Positions 7,970 to 57,523 of a stretch of DNA of 64,000 bases are shown here, one piece after another. Numbering within the stretch: position 1 is the first letter of the stretch; every line of letters starts with the position of its first letter. Source of the stretch: Candidatus Nomurabacteria bacterium. GTDB lineage: Bacteria; Patescibacteriota; Patescibacteriia; Magasanikbacterales; UBA922. Below the pieces are notes generated by a model. The model was not told where the DNA came from. It did no database searches and saw only the letters and a program-made list of their open reading frames with translations. The DNA lies in NCBI GenBank assembly GCA_020632445.1, contig JACKFN010000002.1, forward strand, positions 105,360 to 169,359, written 5' to 3'. The translations under genes and the position numbers were made by a program.

Positions 7970-8605
7970 CTAAAACTTTGGTTGTTTTATCACTTGTAGC
8001 ACCACGCCGCTAACCTGATAGGCATCGACATCATCTCTGTGAATGTATATCGGCATGTACTGTGATGTTGATTCAGAAACGAGTGCGATTTGATTATTTT
8101 CTTTATCAAGAAAAAAGCGCTTGATATTGGCAAGTCCGTCAATAAGCGAAACAACATACTGTCCACTTTCTGGTGCATGATTTTCACTGTCTACGATTAC
8201 GTAATCTCCTTCTTCTATATTTTTACCGTCTATACTTGCCTTGTTCATAGAATTGCCAACGGCTTGGATGGCAAATACCCCATGAATTTTTTTGAGCACC
8301 TTTGGAGAAACCTGCAGATAACCCTCTACCATATCGTCGGCATAGACCGTCGCCGCACCACAGCTCGCACTTCCCAGTACTGGCACCGCTAGCAGTGACC
8401 CTGACTGCGCCTGACTCACCAACTGCAAAATACCTTTTTTACGGTCCATACGAATGAAGCCTTTCTTGGCGAGTTGATAAAGATGATGCTTGATCTTTTG
8501 TGGAGAATTTTCTACTCCGACAAGCTCACCGAGGCTACGAAGCGGAAGACCTGAAACGTCTTTTGAGCCAATAAGTTGAAGAAGTTTTTCTTGAATAGAA
8601 TGCAT
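7970..8605 (-). CDS. lexA: LexA repressor: a winged-HTH N-domain plus an S24 self-cleaving peptidase domain
   Basis: The wHTH reads IQEKLLQLIGSKDVSGLPLRSLGELVGVENSPQKIKHHLYQLAKKGFI. The cleavage region is VLGSASCGAATVYADD...EGYLQVSP (cf. VGRVAAGEP...EGHYQVDP). The Ser motif is AVGNSMN and the Lys motif is ANIKRFF. The start was chosen at MHSIQ (ATG 8603-8605) rather than the upstream ORF-track start. Confidence 0.8.
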   Translation of the reverse strand: MHSIQEKLLQLIGSKDVSGLPLRSLGELVGVENSPQKIKHHLYQLAKKGFIRMDRKKGILQLVSQAQSGSLLAVPVLGSASCGAATVYADDMVEGYLQVSPKVLKKIHGVFAIQAVGNSMNKASIDGKNIEEGDYVIVDSENHAPESGQYVVSLIDGLANIKRFFLDKENNQIALVSESTSQYMPIYIHRDDVDAYQVSGVVLQVIKQPKF

Positions 8606-8667
8606 AGGAGTGTAAATCCCATTATATCGCTTATTTACCTCAAAAGAAATCCCCACTTGTCAACAGT

Positions 8668-8687
8668 TTATTCACAGATGTGAATAA
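8668..8687. promoter_or_regulatory. Perfect palindrome TTATTCACA-ga-TGTGAATAA in the lexA 5' region. This is a candidate LexA operator (SOS box) of this lineage.
   Basis: A 9-2-9 perfect inverted repeat, 63 bp upstream of the lexA ATG. It lies between two TTGACA-containing promoter-like elements on the minus strand. LexA genes are typically autoregulated through a palindromic box. Confidence 0.45.
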
Positions 8688-8757
8688 CTTTTCAGTATTT
8701 ATACTTTTTACATTATTGACAAGCTTGACAACAGAACACTTTTTATCTAAAAATAAA

Positions 8758-8782
8758 CAAAAAATCTTGCTTATAGCAAGAT
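8758..8782 (-). terminator. Rho-independent terminator downstream of the 8813..9220 gene (minus strand)
   Basis: The stem-loop is AAAATCTTGC-ttata-GCAAGATTTT. On the minus strand it is followed by TTTTTTGTTTATTTTT. Confidence 0.5.
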
Positions 8783-8812
8783 TTTCACTCAATATTTTTT
8801 ATCCCCAATTCC

Positions 8813-18983: not shown

Positions 18984-19068
18984 ACTTCTTTCAGTATACA
19001 GAAAAAAAACAAAATCCAAACTTCTTTCTGTGGATAAGTTGCACTCTACAATACACCTTTTATTTGCG

Positions 19069-48294: not shown

Positions 48295-48347
48295 AATCTC
48301 TTATAAAAGGCAAGAAAATGGCTGAGATTAGCCATTTTCTAAAGTAG

Positions 48348-48420
48348 TGCGCCTGGGTGGGTTTGAACCACCGACCCCAACGTTATAAGCGTTGTGCTCT
48401 AACCCCTGAGCTACAGGCAC
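48348..48420 (-). tRNA. tRNA with predicted anticodon UAU (tRNA-Ile, AUA-decoding)
   Basis: Manual cloverleaf gives acceptor GTGCCTG/CAGGCGC (T2-G71 wobble), D-arm GCTC-AGGGGTTA-GAGC, anticodon stem CAACG/CGTTG with loop CTTATAA (U33, anticodon TAT, A37), variable loop GGGTC, T-arm GGTGG-TTCAAAC-CCACC, and discriminator A. A terminator hairpin lies at 48315-48338. Confidence 0.8.
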
Positions 48421-49301: not shown

Positions 49302-49991
49302 TTGAAAAAGTTTGACTGCTACAATACCATTGATAATAATCATTCTATGCCTTTTTCTTTTTTTTCAGAAAACAACAGAATTCGAAGACAGGCCGAAAAA
49401 AAACTCAATGAGTACAACAGGCCATCAATGAATTACTTCGTCCTCATTGCTTTGTCAGCCGCCATCGCCACATTTGGGCTCGCACTTGATAATACTTCCA
49501 TTGTCATCGGCGCTATGGTCGTTGCGCCGCTTATTACTCCGGTCTTTGCATTTTCTCTTGGATTGATACTCTTTCGTATGAAAAATGTTGCGAAGTCATT
49601 TCTGTCGCTCTTCTTCGGTACATTGGCAGGACTGTGCGTCTCCATTCTCATGGCAATGGTAGTAATTCTCATCAATGGCAACTTTGCGCTCGGAAGCGAA
49701 GTGCTTGGAAGAACAGAGCCTAACCTACTTTTTTTTCTCGTAGCATTTCTATCAGGTATCGCAGGTGCCTATGCCTACGGTAGACCACAGGTCCTCGAAT
49801 CCATCACCGGTATCGCTATATCCGTTGCCATTGTTCCTCCACTTGCTGTAACAGGTATTGGAATTGCATTGCAGAATTATCATCTTATGCAAACAAGTTT
49901 CTTACTCTATGCATTTAACTTGCTTGGAATTGCTTTTGGAAGTATTGTAACTTTTGTCGCACTCGGTTTCGGAAAGGATATCGAAACGTAA
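49302..49991 (+). CDS. Polytopic membrane protein (DUF389/TIGR00341-like)
   Basis: It has about 6 TM helices. The GAMVVAPLITPVFAFSLG pattern is present. Confidence 0.45.
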   Translation: MKKFDCYNTIDNNHSMPFSFFSENNRIRRQAEKKLNEYNRPSMNYFVLIALSAAIATFGLALDNTSIVIGAMVVAPLITPVFAFSLGLILFRMKNVAKSFLSLFFGTLAGLCVSILMAMVVILINGNFALGSEVLGRTEPNLLFFLVAFLSGIAGAYAYGRPQVLESITGIAISVAIVPPLAVTGIGIALQNYHLMQTSFLLYAFNLLGIAFGSIVTFVALGFGKDIET

Positions 49992-50133
49992 ATTTTTTTC
50001 AAAAAACTTTGTAGTGCTTCAAAAAAAGTTATACACAGTTTTTTCCTGCAAACTCTTAAAAAAATTTGCAAAAAAACATATAATGTATGTAGGTCGATTG
50101 CATACTTTTTTTTTACAAAAAGTTTTGCATAAC

Positions 50134-50162
50134 GTTTTACATCCATGCTTGTCATGTAAAAC
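50134..50162. promoter_or_regulatory. 9 bp inverted repeat GTTTTACAT-N11-ATGTAAAAC in the 5' leader of the H1-like gene, downstream of TATAAT at 50079-50084
   Basis: A perfect inverted repeat read from the sequence. It lies about 70 nt upstream of the strong RBS AAAGGAGG. Confidence 0.3.
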
Positions 50163-50230
50163 ATTTCAAGTTGGTGTGTGCCTAGGTCACATCAAATACA
50201 ACATAACCTCAAACGAAAGGAGGTGTCACT

Positions 50231-50599
50231 ATGCCAGCAAGAAAAAGAGCTACCAAAAAAAGCAGTGCTGCTCGTAAGCCTGCTAAGCGCAAAGCTGCTC
50301 CTAAGAAAAAGGCTACTGCAAAGCGTAAGCCTGCTAAGCGCAAAGCTGCTCCAAAGAAAAAGGCTGCTGCAAAGCGTAAGCCTGCTAAGCGCAAAGCTGC
50401 TCCAAAGAAAAAGGCTGCTGCAAAGCGTAAGCCTGCTAAGCGCAAAGCTGCTCCAAAGAAAAAGGCTGCTGCAAAGCGTAAGCCTGCTAAGCGCAAAGCT
50501 GCTCCAAAGAAAAAGGCTGCTGCAAAGCGTAAGCCTGCTAAGCGCAAAGCTGCTGCAAAGCGTCCTGCTCGAAGAAGATCAACTTCAAAGAAGAAATAA
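50231..50599 (+). CDS. Histone H1-like, lysine/alanine-rich DNA-binding protein built of tandem 17 aa repeats
   Basis: 122 aa, pI strongly basic. It has five-plus copies of KPAKRKAAPKKKAAAKR. The RBS is AAAGGAGGTG and a terminator follows. The protein resembles Hc1/AlgP/BpH1-type bacterial H1-like proteins in composition. Confidence 0.7.
   Translation: MPARKRATKKSSAARKPAKRKAAPKKKATAKRKPAKRKAAPKKKAAAKRKPAKRKAAPKKKAAAKRKPAKRKAAPKKKAAAKRKPAKRKAAPKKKAAAKRKPAKRKAAAKRPARRRSTSKKK
50276..50562 (+). repeat. 51 bp tandem DNA repeat: 5 full copies plus a diverged 6th
   Basis: Units start at 50276, 50327, 50378, 50429, 50480 and 50531. Copies 2-5 are essentially identical, and the first differs at a few sites. 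The repeat encodes the 17 aa protein repeat. Confidence 0.85.
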
Positions 50600-50611
50600 A
50601 TTTTTCTTCAT

Positions 50612-50640
50612 CACAAAAAGAGGCCAAAAGCCTCTTTTTG
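50612..50640. terminator. Bidirectional terminator between the H1-like gene (+) and the PHP-domain gene (-)
   Basis: AAAGAGGC-caaaa-GCCTCTTTTT. Confidence 0.55.
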
Positions 50641-50655
50641 CTTTGGGAACTTTTT

Positions 50656-51960
50656 TTATAGATTCATTCCAAGCTGCTTTGCCCGTCCCCGCTGCTGAGC
50701 ACTTTGAAAAACTTTTACCACTCCAAACTCCCCATCATACCCTGGTTGGATATAAATATCTCCTTCTCTTACCTTTTGAATTGCATTGGCAACTTCTTTG
50801 GATGAATACTTTTCTATCTCTTTTACATCACCATGAATAAGTACACTAAACTCACTTCCCATCTTTTCAATTAACCCATCATATATTTTCTTGACGGCCT
50901 TGCTTGATACACCAACTTGAATGGTGTCGGAAATAATTTCTGGGAGTGGAACAATACTTTTAAATGGAATTCGCTCAAACTGGTTGGCACTACCGTGTGG
51001 CCGTGACGCAAGCTCCTGTACCCTGTTGAGCACACCTACAACAAGTTTCTTCTTGCACTTTGGACATATTCCTTTGAGCCTCTTTGTTTGCTCTGGCTCA
51101 CACCAAAAACCACAATCCCTATGTCCATCGCAATGATATTTTCCTTCTTCTGGATAAAATTCTATGGTATACAAAAATTCGCTTTTCTTTGCTTCCCGGA
51201 TGATCTGCATAATCCTCAAATATGTAATATCAAGCTCACTTTGAAAGGAAAACACATTTGCTTCCCTACCTAATTTCTGTGGACTGTGCGCATCAGAGTT
51301 TGACACCAAAGTAATCTTATCCAAAAAATCACACTGCCAATTCATCAGAGGGTCACTAGAGAGTCCGGTTTCGATAGCAAAAATGTGTGGTGTCAAATCT
51401 TCAAAAGCCTCTTCGAGAGAATCATATCCACTTTTTGAACCAAAAATACCAAACCATGGCGTCCATACATGTGCAGGTATCATCACCATACGCTCATCAA
51501 CATCAAGCATTAACTCTAAGAGTGCTTTGCTGGTAATACCCAGTATGGGACGTCCGTCAGCATACAAGTTAAACCCCATGTCAGCTAGCTTCTGATTAAA
51601 CTTTTCTGCAACCGATATACTTGGAGCAAAAACAAGATGGTGAACTCTCCGAGTTGCTCCCTTATCTTTTTTGATAACCGAAACTTCTGTACCCAAAAGA
51701 AACTTCGTTTGATGATTTCGCAGGATAGAAAACTCTTGATCGTTTTTCACTTCTTCTTTTAATACAAAAACACCCTCTGAATGCTCCACCAAACTTTCCT
51801 GAATATGTTCAAACCACTTTGGGTGCGTAAAATCACCGGTCACTACAATATCGATTCCGCGTATAGCACAACTACGTGCAATTTCTGGAAGCTCAAGATG
51901 CTTGGAGCATGCCCGAGAGTACTTTGAATGAATATGGAGGTCAAGAATTTGTTGGATCAT
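50656..51960 (-). CDS. PHP-domain protein with a central C4 zinc ribbon. Its architecture resembles endonuclease Q / the TIGR00375 family.
   Basis: 434 aa. The N-terminus is LDLHIHSKYS (PHP motif I), with further His/Asp PHP motifs. The zinc-ribbon region reads YHCDGHRDCGFWC...GICPKCKKKL. Confidence 0.5.
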   Translation of the reverse strand: MIQQILDLHIHSKYSRACSKHLELPEIARSCAIRGIDIVVTGDFTHPKWFEHIQESLVEHSEGVFVLKEEVKNDQEFSILRNHQTKFLLGTEVSVIKKDKGATRRVHHLVFAPSISVAEKFNQKLADMGFNLYADGRPILGITSKALLELMLDVDERMVMIPAHVWTPWFGIFGSKSGYDSLEEAFEDLTPHIFAIETGLSSDPLMNWQCDFLDKITLVSNSDAHSPQKLGREANVFSFQSELDITYLRIMQIIREAKKSEFLYTIEFYPEEGKYHCDGHRDCGFWCEPEQTKRLKGICPKCKKKLVVGVLNRVQELASRPHGSANQFERIPFKSIVPLPEIISDTIQVGVSSKAVKKIYDGLIEKMGSEFSVLIHGDVKEIEKYSSKEVANAIQKVREGDIYIQPGYDGEFGVVKVFQSAQQRGRAKQLGMNL

Positions 51961-54110: not shown

Positions 54111-54142
54111 AAAGAACCGAGTAGCTCCTCGGTTCTTTTATT
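54111..54142. terminator. Bidirectional rho-independent terminator
   Basis: GAACCGAG-tagctc-CTCGGTTCTTTTATTTCTTT. Confidence 0.5.
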
Positions 54143-55385
54143 TCTTTGTCGGGGAAAATACTTGATATATAACAATTACTACAAAAACTGTAAACAAATA
54201 TATCTGGTAACCGAATGCAAATGCAGCCCCATTGATAGGCTCGTAAACTCCAAAAGAACATACGGCTGCAAAAAAAATCGCCATCAGACAAAGACAGAGT
54301 TTGGACAAAAAATCGTAACGATCCTTTTTGTGTTTCCACTGACGAACAATATGCCGTATTTCCTTTATAAAAAGCTTCCACAGGAGAAAACAAACCTTTC
54401 CCAGTATTGGCCATACGAGTATCAAAGGCAGCGCAAAAAGACGAGCTTCTTGTGCCTTTGCAGCCCAAAATACAAACGTCGTGTTGATAATCACTGATAA
54501 TACAAAAGCAAACAATAGACGCTGTACTTGCTTTTTTAGGTGAAAATGGCGGGAAAATGCGCGCAGCATGGCAAGCGGCAATCCCAAAACGACAAAGAAG
54601 CTCACTAAAGACTCCAAGGTATGTGCCCCATCCTGAAAATTGAACATCCAGTGCCGAAACCTTTCATCAGACATATATTCCCAAGCGACTGTACCGTAAT
54701 CGCTGTGCACACTGAACCAATATATGGCACCAAGGTATGCTCCCGTTGCCAAAAGCATTGCAAAAACACTTCTGACAAATACAATATCCGTAAATGCATG
54801 CTTTTTATTTGGCATGAGAAAAAATACAAACCCAGGGATGAGCAAGACACTCGTTTCACGTGCAAAAAGGGCCAGAAAAAAAGAGACAGAAAACCCTATC
54901 CACCATCTTTTCATAGCACACAAAAGCGTCAGCAAAAGAAACAAATACTGAAATGGCTCGTCGTAGGAGTAAATAGGTATGCCAAAGGCAAAGAGAATCG
55001 AAAAGCTGAGATAAAAAAATACCACCGCCAGATAGGCATTGCGATCTCTTTGCTTAAATGCCTTGGCAAGATAGAATAAAGCCATCCCACACAAAAATAA
55101 AAGCCCAAAATTTACGGCAATAAACGCATTGGCATAACTCACATCAAGTATTCTATGAACAAAATCAATGGCAAATGATGTCATCGGCCTTCGTACAAAG
55201 GCCGGGTGCTGCATGTGGTAATCATACACTTCCTGTATGAAACCATGGTTGATATTATTCTTGTAATCCCAAGGATCCACCATCCCAATATCAAGACTTA
55301 GCATGCTTGGAAAGAAATAGTGCAAGGCAAAAATGCCTAGTGTAAACGCTAGGCATAAAAAGAATGTTTTGAGCAGTGTTTTCAT
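54138..55385 (-). CDS. Polytopic integral membrane protein (~11 TM; possibly a GT-C-like glycosyltransferase or ligase, unverified)
   Basis: 415 aa, with hydrophobic helices throughout. No soluble domain. Confidence 0.4.
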   Translation of the reverse strand: MKTLLKTFFLCLAFTLGIFALHYFFPSMLSLDIGMVDPWDYKNNINHGFIQEVYDYHMQHPAFVRRPMTSFAIDFVHRILDVSYANAFIAVNFGLLFLCGMALFYLAKAFKQRDRNAYLAVVFFYLSFSILFAFGIPIYSYDEPFQYLFLLLTLLCAMKRWWIGFSVSFFLALFARETSVLLIPGFVFFLMPNKKHAFTDIVFVRSVFAMLLATGAYLGAIYWFSVHSDYGTVAWEYMSDERFRHWMFNFQDGAHTLESLVSFFVVLGLPLAMLRAFSRHFHLKKQVQRLLFAFVLSVIINTTFVFWAAKAQEARLFALPLILVWPILGKVCFLLWKLFIKEIRHIVRQWKHKKDRYDFLSKLCLCLMAIFFAAVCSFGVYEPINGAAFAFGYQIYLFTVFVVIVIYQVFSPTKK

Positions 55386-56107
55386 TTTCCACTATATTCT
55401 ATGTCTTCTTCACTCAGTCGACGAATCCCAGCGTCCGAGTGTTTTTCTTCTATAACGTGCGCAAGAAGTCCTGGGACTCGTCCAATAATAAAGATAGCAT
55501 CTCCCTGATCTGGCGTAAAGCCCATGTCACACAAAATGGCAGCAATAACCCCATCAATGTTAAAAGGAAGTGGCTTTGATGATATTGCACTCAGCTCGCC
55601 TTGGACTTGTTTGGCGAACTGACTATACTTTCCTAAAACACCGTTTTCTTGCGCAATGGCAAAAAGCGTTTCGCTGCGTGGATCTCTATCCGTGAATACC
55701 TTGTGGCCAAAACCTGGTACACGAATCTTTTGTTCTTTGAGACTCAAAAGAAGTTGTTTCAAATTCTTTGTGGATTCATTTTCAAGAAAAAACTGCATGG
55801 CCATCCCAGTGGCAAGTCCATGCCTTTGACCAAAACCAAGTAACCCCGCTGCAAGGGATGCATTGAGAGGGTTTTTGGCTGACACGGATACACGGGCATT
55901 GAGCGCCGAAGTATTTACGCTATGATCAATTGAACTTATCAAAAGCGCATCCATCATTCGTCCCTCACTCTCGTTTGGGAGTCTTCCCTGCAAAATATGG
56001 AAAACCGATTGTGCAAAAGAATGCCCCTTTACCAGCGTTTCCAAAGCAATGCCACGGATATACTCTCCGTCTTCACGAATGTCGGTTATACTTGTTTGAA
56101 ATTTCAT
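55382..56107 (-). CDS. Truncated citrate-synthase-fold protein (citryl-CoA lyase / ATP-citrate-lyase C-domain-like)
   Basis: VPGFGHKVFTDRDPRSE matches the citrate synthase signature G-F-G-H-x-V-Y-x-x-x-D-P-R. PLPFNIDGVIAAIL matches the catalytic-Asp region (NVDFYSG). It is only ~242 aa, covering the small domain and the C-terminal half of citrate synthase. The start was chosen at MKFQTSITDI (ATG 56105-56107). Confidence 0.6.
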   Translation of the reverse strand: MKFQTSITDIREDGEYIRGIALETLVKGHSFAQSVFHILQGRLPNESEGRMMDALLISSIDHSVNTSALNARVSVSAKNPLNASLAAGLLGFGQRHGLATGMAMQFFLENESTKNLKQLLLSLKEQKIRVPGFGHKVFTDRDPRSETLFAIAQENGVLGKYSQFAKQVQGELSAISSKPLPFNIDGVIAAILCDMGFTPDQGDAIFIIGRVPGLLAHVIEEKHSDAGIRRLSEEDIEYSGK

Positions 56108-56108
56108 A

Positions 56109-56618
56109 TTACAAAAACATTTCCATAAAATAATCATCGTAAAATTTTCCATCAATAAGCATTTCCTTTTCAAGCGTACACAGTACACTAAACCCAAGCT
56201 TCTTATAAAAAGCAACAGCCCTTTCATTTTCTTTATTCACCAAAAGTTGTAGCTTGAGTACACCAGCTTCCTTGAGCTTATCCGTCAAAAACTCAAAAAG
56301 CCGCTTTGAAATTCCTTTCCCCCTATATTCGGTTTCTACAAAGACTGCCTTAAGATGTGCGACATGCCTTAACCTCGGAAGTGCGTCAATATACGCTCCC
56401 ATGAATCCCACAACTTTTTCACCTTCCATAGCAAAATATTGCCACGACGTTTCTTCTAACCAATTCTTTTCCAAACTTTGACGCCACTGCTCCTCACTAC
56501 GCTCCTTTTCAAGCTCATAGCTACTTCCAAAAGCAATTGGCTCAACCTGAAGAGATTTGAGACGAATGTCTTTAAAAAGTTCCCATTGATCTGGATGAAG
56601 TTTTATTATTTCAATCAT
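56109..56618 (-). CDS. GNAT-family N-acetyltransferase
   Basis: It carries VVGFMGAY...VFVETEYRGKGISKRLFEFL...AFYKKLGF (motifs A and B). Confidence 0.75.
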   Translation of the reverse strand: MIEIIKLHPDQWELFKDIRLKSLQVEPIAFGSSYELEKERSEEQWRQSLEKNWLEETSWQYFAMEGEKVVGFMGAYIDALPRLRHVAHLKAVFVETEYRGKGISKRLFEFLTDKLKEAGVLKLQLLVNKENERAVAFYKKLGFSVLCTLEKEMLIDGKFYDDYFMEMFL

Positions 56619-56626
56619 ACCATTTT

Positions 56627-57523
56627 TTATGCATATGGCTGTACTAACTCTACCAAATGTTCATAGGTTTGTGCAATCATGACTCCTGCAGCCTTGAGGG
56701 CAGCTTCTTTTTCAGCAGCGCCTTTCCCACGCTCAACAATTGCCCCGGCATGACCGATATTTACTCCCTCAGGAAGACTGTTAGCAAACTTTCCCCCCAC
56801 AAAAACCGCGAGCGGCTTGGTAAATCCTTTATCACGAACCAAGTCAGCAATCTCAAACTCATAACTCCCACCATGCTCACCAAAAATAATCACTGCCTTA
56901 GTCTGCGTATCTTTTTCAAATTCTTTCAAAATATCTGCATAGGTCGTCCCCATCAAAAGATCCCCACCTACGTGCACCGCACTGCTTTGTCCCATCCCCG
57001 CCCTACGAACCTGCCAAGAGAGTTCATTCGTCATTCCACCAGATCGAGATATAATTCCAATCGAACCTGGCATAAAAATCTCATCTGCTTGATCTTTAGG
57101 TCCTCCAATAACCCCCACACGAGCCTGACCTGGATTGATAAATCCAAGTGAGCTCGGCCCAATAATCCTGGCGCCTCGCTCTTTGGCAGCAGATAGACAA
57201 TAGGCCGTATCCTTGATGGGTACTCGCTCAATAATGGGATTGATGATCTTTACTCCTGCTTCTATAGCTTCCATCATTGCCTCTCTTGCAGCAAATGGCG
57301 GCACATAAATAGCACTAACATCAACGGGTCCAAGCCTGTCCACCAGATCCTGCACTGTGTGAAATACAGGCTTGCCTTCCACAAACTCACCAGCCTTGCC
57401 TGGACGTGTTCCACCAATGACATTGCTTCCATACTCAAGCATAGCCGTCGTCGCACTTTGCCCTTCTTTTCCAGTAATACCTTGTACAATAATCTTTGAG
57501 CTTTTATCAACGAATATTCCCAT
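56627..57523 (-). CDS. Succinyl-CoA synthetase alpha-subunit-like CoA-binding / phospho-His subunit
   Basis: The N-terminus is KIIVQGITGKEG. It also carries IISRSGGMTNE and the phospho-His motif GHAGAIV. Confidence 0.85.
   Translation of the reverse strand: MGIFVDKSSKIIVQGITGKEGQSATTAMLEYGSNVIGGTRPGKAGEFVEGKPVFHTVQDLVDRLGPVDVSAIYVPPFAAREAMMEAIEAGVKIINPIIERVPIKDTAYCLSAAKERGARIIGPSSLGFINPGQARVGVIGGPKDQADEIFMPGSIGIISRSGGMTNELSWQVRRAGMGQSSAVHVGGDLLMGTTYADILKEFEKDTQTKAVIIFGEHGGSYEFEIADLVRDKGFTKPLAVFVGGKFANSLPEGVNIGHAGAIVERGKGAAEKEAALKAAGVMIAQTYEHLVELVQPYA

Follow-up and report, generated by a model that had tools for sequence, protein, structure and literature searches.

Lysine-rich, repeat-built polycation genes with a conserved leader RNA in Patescibacteria

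Known lysine-rich DNA-binding proteins and a stand-alone polycation

Disordered, acid-free polycations rich in lysine, alanine and proline, such as the C-terminal tail of histone H1, the SPKK-motif sperm histones and the protamines, neutralise and condense DNA. DNA-binding Lys/Ala/Pro repeat regions also occur in bacteria, as in Pseudomonas AlgP (KPAA repeats) and the PAKKA tails of mycobacterial HupB/MDP1. Hc2 is a lysine-rich DNA-binding protein whose size ranges from 165 to 237 amino acids (aa) via 36-aa repeat elements (PMC2848022). Here, we describe a gene for a stand-alone polycation in a 64,000-nucleotide (nt) stretch of Candidatus Nomurabacteria bacterium DNA (contig JACKFN010000002.1, positions 105,360 to 169,359; hereafter the window), which belongs to a previously undescribed family in Patescibacteria. 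This family is defined not by protein sequence but by five shared features: a position convergent to an endonuclease-Q gene, a DnaA-box-like 13-mer in the promoter region, a structured leader, an extended Shine-Dalgarno sequence and an intrinsic terminator. Bacterial H1-like polycations are already known; what is new here is that members stand alone, at lengths down to 17 aa, that their leader RNA is conserved and that they have a promoter box in common with lexA.

The window gene (Table 1) had originally been predicted to encode a 122-aa product dominated by K, A, P and R from a 51-base-pair (bp) tandem array, and both the open reading frame (ORF) list and Tandem Repeats Finder return it as described. 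The product is composed of 45 Lys, 38 Ala, 18 Arg, 13 Pro, 4 Ser, 3 Thr and a single Met, with no Asp or Glu, and its 63 Lys and Arg residues amount to a net charge of about +63. Codon use is restricted: AAG reaches 67%, compared with 41% across the window (GC content 42.8%), and GCT accounts for 82% of Ala codons. The array has a period of 51 with 5.6 copies, 98% matches and a score of 555. Units 2-5 are mutually identical, in line with the original prediction, unit 6 is truncated, and unit 1 carries two base differences, one of them synonymous and the other an A to T change at the protein level. Perfect periodicity extends over 239 bp (50316-50554). The N-terminus, MPARKR, fits the start typical of the family (MPxKK or MAKKK). 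Beyond the stop codon, the GC-cored stem of the terminator folds at -17.6 kcal/mol (z = -3.4), and as its two flanks are an A-run and a T-run, it could serve both convergent genes.

The term "histone-H1-like" refers to composition and likely mode of action, and is an analogy rather than a statement of homology. The resemblance to H1, Hc1 and AlgP that had been proposed from the sequence therefore stands for composition and falls for homology: Pfam and NCBIfam gave no match at E<=0.01, and no Hc1 or linker-histone match appeared in either, HC2 being the only family seen in Pfam at E<=10 (discussed below). AlphaFold2 predicts no secondary structure for the 122-aa protein (predicted template modelling score 0.12). 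The Hc2 proteins of Chlamydia (HctB) and the Hc2-like proteins of Bordetella (BpH1), Burkholderia and Ralstonia are alike in being rich in Lys, Ala and Arg, in carrying intragenic tandem elements and in changing size by duplication and deletion. Lysine-rich intragenic tandem elements with size polymorphism are also found here (5.6 copies in the window, 17-132 aa among relatives). However, the family differs from Hc2 in lacking a profile match, in its 17-aa unit (window array), in total lengths down to 17 aa, in its dedicated conserved leader and fixed genomic slot, and in its Patescibacteria host. The H1 tail, SPKK sperm histones and protamines share with the window protein the richness in K, A and P, the lack of acidic residues and (S/T/A)PKK-like motifs. 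Unlike histone H1, the window protein has no winged-helix globular domain, as judged by the absence of a Pfam match and of predicted secondary structure, and there is no evidence of common descent. In AlgP and HupB/MDP1, the repeats are tails on folded domains, whereas the polycation described here stands alone: no NCBIfam or Pfam match of the AlgP type was obtained, and the 122 aa hold no non-repeat domain.

Broader searches mostly recovered proteins of similar composition. A word-indexed search returned six proteins, five of which are SWIB-domain proteins with similar tails, and HMMER, run against 1.84 billion representatives, gave ten matches, all of them tails on other domains or unrelated repeats. 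The SWIB/MDM2-domain proteins (P0001, P0002, P0004-P0006) carry N-terminal K/A/P/R repeat tails of the KRKPAKRKVA type, but their C-terminal SWIB domain is absent from the window protein, and the match is compositional. The tail length of these five proteins is itself variable, making them another example of a polylysine region that changes copy number. In an exact look-up against a 15-billion-protein catalogue, the window protein and 20 relatives (each with two start choices) were absent. JGI, NCBI and Logan data do include one member, of 36 aa, as a called gene, so the idea that gene callers always miss the family was dropped. Nonetheless, with no Pfam, NCBIfam or Rfam entry, genes of this kind are missed by profile-based annotation.

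A family in a fixed genomic slot

We scanned 80 genomic loci carrying the endonuclease-Q neighbour for Lys/Arg-rich ORFs. Such an ORF lies directly downstream, in convergent orientation, at 13 Patescibacteria loci, while none occupies that slot in the Desulfobulbaceae and other non-Patescibacteria loci of this set. Including metagenomic contigs, the convergent arrangement is seen at 26 related loci (13 genome and 13 metagenome), and the pairing is retained down to ~45-50% identity. The closest relatives carry the labels Magasanikbacteria or Patescibacteria.

At the 13 genome loci, the encoded proteins are 17, 23, 33, 37, 39, 58, 61, 62, 66, 70, 75, 122 and 132 aa long, and all begin with MP(A/V/T/P)(K/R)K or MAKKK. 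Every family member has GGAGGTG or GGGGGTG before the ORF, a sequence that was part of no search pattern, and a GC-rich hairpin with a T-run follows the stop codon in every relative. The window locus shows the same traits: it is detected by the leader model described below and has TATAAT-N6-AGGTCGA, the ATGCTTG hairpin, the Shine-Dalgarno sequence, the ORF, the terminator and the convergent endonuclease-Q gene. The ORF is a genuine gene, and the strong signals attributed to it from the window sequence are borne out across related genomes and metagenomes, where position, leader, Shine-Dalgarno sequence and terminator are all conserved. The family shows that a rapid turnover of sequence and length is compatible with a conserved function, kept by composition and regulatory context.

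Relatives carry in-frame arrays of their own, with periods of 30, 33, 45, 48, 72, 78 or 120 bp and 89-100% identity between units. All periods, including the 51 bp of the window, are multiples of three. As each lineage has its own array and every period preserves the frame, expansion is recurrent, recent, lineage-specific and constrained to stay in frame, in agreement with the recent expansion proposed for the window. Between close relatives, length changes in steps of entire units (38, 42 and 44 aa within one group; 66 and 70 aa within a second), and the closest full-length relative of the window type has only 36 aa. The original prediction had further expected copy number to differ between strains. 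This was not found: in five groups of contigs with identical leaders, each drawn from different samples, ORF lengths were identical, with no length alleles within one strain-level lineage.

The array had also been suspected of being prone to assembly collapse, and short-read contigs of four lineages do break in or at the gene (ends of L001, L003, L006, L142, L143 and L144). For instance, L003 breaks off within a perfect 30-bp array, L006 breaks off precisely at the stop codon, and a Logan contig with an identical neighbour ends ~30 nt into the last repeat unit. In the nearest relative, whose endonuclease Q shares 81% identity, three contigs, each from an independent run, have the same final base, 93 bp past the stop codon of the neighbour and inside the 3′ end of the polycation gene (...KPAKKKAAPRKKR before the stop). 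The polycation gene is thus a recurrent breakpoint in short-read assemblies of these genomes.

Such breaks, together with the 239 bp of perfect periodicity, could be taken to mean that the locus is an assembly artefact or a non-coding satellite, or that the real product comes from another frame, either 50178..50840 or 50209..50547. Both of these ORFs had been listed as antisense; the second truly is, while the first is a + strand ORF in a different frame. In 24-28 of 30 members, the antisense frames are open, but this is automatic given the AAR/GCN/CCN/CGN codon set, and the +2 frame is open in just 12 of the 30. Moreover, the sense-directed promoter, leader, Shine-Dalgarno sequence with ATG, and terminator are conserved in more than 30 loci, every array period is a multiple of three, and the existence of the gene does not depend on its copy number. 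We regard an artefact or wrong-frame explanation as barely credible.

Promoter, leader RNA and the box shared with lexA

The leader is ~140 nt long, begins with AGGUCGA and contains a hairpin with an AUGCUUG loop (H1) followed by one to three further hairpins. The TATAAT -10, the 9-bp inverted repeat and the strong ribosome-binding site noted in the original prediction are all present, and the inverted repeat folds as a hairpin. In the leader alignment, TATAAT is invariant, a value to be read with the fact that the metagenome search pattern itself demanded it. AGGTCGA keeps both its sequence and its spacing in L004, L007, L008, L009 and L010, which are genome relatives found independently of the motif. 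From this fixed 6-nt spacing after the -10 we infer that AGGTCGA marks the mRNA 5′ end, at ~50091. The order TATAAT-N6-AGGTCGA, H1, H2 is shared by the window and seven genome loci.

Of all parts, the leader is conserved best. In the H1 loop, ATGCTTG is identical across 27 leaders apart from a single T to C change in L008. H1 typically takes the form TTTTTTACA-NNN-ATGCTTG-NNN-TGTAAAAAA, while L004 and L005 present the same loop on entirely different complementary arms. At the H2 site, other lineages have different palindromes (CTCGCGATCGCGAG, CGCCGCGGCG and GTGCCATGGTCAC), and a further hairpin, H3, often stands directly before the Shine-Dalgarno sequence, with unrelated sequences that all form 6-10-bp stems. 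Window-type leaders have an additional insertion, H0, with equivalents in L082, L102, L112 and L146. When 26 distinct leaders were compared with dinucleotide shuffles, the mean z was -3.05 and 19 fell below -2. The arm replacement in L004 and L005, the lineage-specific H2 palindromes, the unrelated H3 stems and these z-scores together argue for structure at the RNA level. RNAalifold predicted no pairs in the full MAFFT alignment of 26 leaders because insertions break the alignment; with 14 class-1 leaders, H1 and H2 were both predicted, but as neither varies in this set there was no covariation.

The specificity of this leader was examined by scanning metagenomes with the pattern TATAAT-N6-AGGTCGA-N17-47-ATGCTTG, which leaves stems, later hairpins, Shine-Dalgarno sequence and ORF unspecified. 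In 26 of 39 matches, the H1 arms, H2/H3 and GGAGGTG were present together with a polylysine ORF of 18-82+ aa, and half of these 26 also had the endonuclease-Q gene convergent downstream; the remaining 13 had none of those features and are chance matches. Across all loci, the H1 pattern occurs once per locus and exclusively upstream of the polycation ORF (in the window, one observed compared with 0.03 expected). A scan of viral contigs for H1 gave 15 chance matches inside coding regions and none with a polycation gene. A covariance model (R1) trained on 14 class-1 leaders, with no window-type leader among them, detects window positions 50120-50233 with 40.3 bits (E=1.8e-5), and over 573 kb it found nothing beyond family leaders except weak antisense self-matches. 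No Rfam 15 family matched the window or eight related loci, with chance matches only at E<=10. The leader is a candidate new cis-regulatory RNA, accompanied by a promoter element shared with lexA.

Two further observations concern the H1 loop and the promoter. The AUG of the loop opens a four-codon ORF, MLV(L/M/V/S)-stop, in 21 of the 27 leaders (window 50145-50159); no Shine-Dalgarno sequence precedes it, two of the substitutions seen are synonymous, and as its stop codon is part of the stem, this mini-ORF may be incidental. Anticodon mimicry and a T-box were considered for the AUGCUUG loop and rejected, as there is neither a U33-type context nor a T-box sequence. TTGACA-like hexamers precede the -10 by 7-8 nt or by 26-31 nt (window 50066-50084; L009, L140 and others), compared with the canonical 17, which may reflect an unusual promoter geometry in this group or a factor site.

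Upstream of the promoter, a 13-mer box holding the DnaA-box consensus (Table 1) is conserved, in either orientation, before almost every family member. The box also occurs at lexA genes. In the window, the nearest copies of the box are a palindrome, TTATTCACA-GA-TGTGAATAA (8668-8687), directly upstream of a LexA homologue, and a copy with one mismatch upstream of a MazF-type toxin operon (19028-19040). In three further lineages of Patescibacteria, lexA is preceded by the 13-mer with TTGAC after it, making four lexA promoters in all. Among 1.33 Mb of fetched DNA there are 24 instances of the composite TGTGNAYAA-N2-16-TTGAC, and all but two of them are at polycation-gene or lexA promoters. As far as sequence can tell, the position of the 13-mer (~ -40 to -70) and its free orientation are a better match for an upstream activator or for DnaA than for a LexA operator of the classical kind. 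A replication origin was discarded as an explanation for the DnaA-like boxes, since GC skew is negative over the whole window. The LexA homologue itself (7970-8656, - strand; Peptidase_S24 and LexA DNA-binding domain) is embedded in a glycosyltransferase cluster, and the region upstream of it (8657-8812) contains repeated TGTCAA/TTGACA hexamers as well as the box palindrome.

Table 1. Positions of the polycation gene, its signals and associated features (window coordinates unless a locus is named)
Feature	Position	Strand	Remarks
13-mer box	50026..50038	+	AAGTTATACACAG, also written AAGTTATNCACAG; holds DnaA-box consensus TTATNCACA
-10 hexamer	50079..50084	+	TATAAT; promoter scan TTAAAA-17-TATAAT, 10/12 matches
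AGGTCGA	50091..50097	+	exactly 6 nt past the -10
Hairpin H0	50099..50129	+	insertion peculiar to window-type leaders; in minimum-free-energy fold
Hairpin H1	50134..50162	+	9-bp stem GTTTTACAT/ATGTAAAAC; loop ATGCTTG at 50145-50151
Hairpin H2	50171..50195	+	GGTGTGTGCC/GGTCACATC around CCTAGG; present in fold
Extended Shine-Dalgarno	50216..50225	+	AAAGGAGGTG; 5 nt upstream of ATG
Polycation coding sequence	50231..50599	+	ATG start, 122 aa (ORF list)
In-frame tandem array	50273..50560	+	unit 51 bp = 17 aa, RKPAKRKAAPKKKAAAK; 5.6 copies as assembled
Intrinsic terminator	50614..50640	.	11-bp stem AAAAAGAGGC/GCCTCTTTTT; A-run one side, T-run other
Endonuclease-Q-family gene	50656..51960	-	TIGR00375 / MJ0043_C; convergent neighbour, kept in relatives
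DUF389 membrane protein	49302..49991		neighbour of polycation gene
13-mer, lexA-side copies elsewhere	L136 1389-1420; L140 ~1165; L141 ~1144
tRNA-Lys/tRNA-Arg pair in related loci	L002 8646-8799; L007 4936-5161; L008 7689-7859; L093 1196-1356; L109 9701-9850; L111 5849-6135; L118 614-845		also L005, L083, L099, L114

Possible functions and genomic surroundings

By analogy with the described systems, we somewhat favour a protein that binds the nucleoid or nucleic acids electrostatically, with a length tuned by repeat gain and loss. The polycation would cover nucleic acid and neutralise its charge, and the most likely effect would be compaction of the AT-rich chromosome in a cell of very small size. 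Chromosomal DNA is the likeliest target in view of the (A/K)PKK-type motifs, which would suit minor-groove contacts, the analogy with H1 tails, protamines and Hc2, and the very small size of the cells, which are reportedly densely packed with DNA. Length, and hence charge per molecule, changes fast as slippage or unequal recombination adds or removes tandem units in frame. The gene is probably very highly expressed, a level that we infer, and the regulated high expression proposed originally is plausible given that the leader is structured and conserved. Its 5′-proximal hairpins would probably stabilise the mRNA, and the invariant AUGCUUG loop probably takes a regulatory input, possibly feedback from the product. 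The proposal as a whole thus keeps most of the original prediction, namely a polycationic and probably nucleoid-type product, recent expansion, assembly fragility and a structured leader, while it sets aside homology to known proteins and variation between strains.

Several points weigh against this nucleoid role. No homology from the Pfam, NCBIfam, HMMER or PDB searches ties the protein to DNA, and HC2 (PF07382), the sole Pfam family at E<=10, scores 11.0 bits (E=0.45) compared with a gathering cut-off of 40 bits; relatives score 6.7 bits or nothing. Bridging of DNA may be beyond the reach of members with just 17-25 aa. Leaders that are conserved and structured are more typically found with RNA-binding proteins that control their own production. 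As H1 and H2 are invariant in the main class of leaders, support from covariation is limited to between-class comparisons and to H3. The 5.6 copies of the window array are a provisional figure, taken from the assembly. Finally, a tRNA-Lys(CUU)-tRNA-Arg(UCG) pair lies 0.13-1.8 kb upstream on the same strand in 11 related loci (Table 1; in L083, just the tRNA-Arg is visible before the contig end), a linkage that suggests a translation-related context. This arrangement is absent from the window.

In an alternative explanation, the polycation binds RNA or the ribosome, as a ribosome-associated mini-protein or RNA chaperone that represses its own mRNA via the leader hairpin in the style of ribosomal proteins. 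Autoregulatory or stabilising 5′ leaders are known from genes of nucleic-acid-binding proteins, including ribosomal-protein leaders, the cspA 5′ untranslated region and 5′ stem-loop stabilisers. The polycation leader is alike in being long and structured, with a hairpin near the 5′ end and a strong Shine-Dalgarno sequence, but it matches no Rfam family. Its sequence-specific loop, the very strong translation signals, the frequent site directly downstream of the tRNA pair and the size of the 17-25-aa members, which is like that of bS22, bL37 or THX, are all what an RNA-binding product would lead one to expect. The eight-fold length range and the freely changing units, on the other hand, are a misfit for a fixed ribosomal binding pocket, and conservation is limited to composition. 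A PDB sequence search gave eL6 alone (E=0.87), and no similarity to small basic ribosomal proteins (bS22, bL37, THX) was found among PDB chains; low-complexity matches are suppressed in this search, so that it is weak evidence. Overall, we consider an RNA- or ribosome-binding role unlikely, though not implausible.

That composition is conserved while sequence and length are not, and that acidic and hydrophobic residues are absent, would also be expected of a general, genetically encoded counter-ion, i.e., a polyamine substitute or polyphosphate binder that buffers all polyanions without a specific nucleoid role. The reduced biosynthesis of Patescibacteria would suit such a function. Computationally, it is indistinguishable from the nucleoid-binding explanation, but the elaborate, gene-specific leader implies tighter control than a bulk counter-ion needs, and we judge it distinctly improbable.

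Polylysine-like peptides can be membrane-active and Patescibacteria are often episymbionts, which raises the question of whether the product is exported to act on host or competitor membranes in an antimicrobial or cell-penetrating manner. The protein has no signal peptide and no hydrophobic or amphipathic segment, and no export or immunity genes are adjacent: the neighbours are the DUF389 protein, endonuclease Q and a TrmB-like regulator. Export is accordingly a very remote prospect.

Returning to nucleoid binding, a wider and more doubtful proposal is that the family constitutes an "encoded polylysine" system. Here, a stand-alone polycation with repeat-tuned charge would be controlled by a new AUGCUUG-loop leader RNA, while the lexA-shared, DnaA-consensus box would tie chromosome coating to replication or DNA-damage status. 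In many lineages, the gene has as neighbours the genes for tRNA-Lys and tRNA-Arg, the tRNAs that its translation uses up. The family offers a concrete candidate for DNA organisation or neutralisation in ultra-small, genome-reduced Patescibacteria, and one that is easy to synthesise, with peptides down to 17-40 aa.

Some observations on the surrounding genes are of separate interest. The NCBI record names the product of the endonuclease-Q-family gene "DNA helicase UvrD", as is also the case for several relatives, and this has the look of a legacy mis-annotation. At 48347-48420 (- strand), a tRNA-Ile is encoded whose anticodon is UAU, in place of the usual lysidine-modified CAU type, and it is kept near the locus in the window-type lineage (also in L010, L082, L102 and L112). 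Further downstream, a cluster at 54138-57523 (- strand) encodes a 298-aa protein resembling succinyl-CoA ligase (CoA_binding/Ligase_CoA), an acetyltransferase of 169 aa, a short protein of ~250 aa that is citrate-synthase-like and one of 415 aa without a Pfam match, and resembles split parts of an ATP-citrate-lyase or citryl-CoA system.

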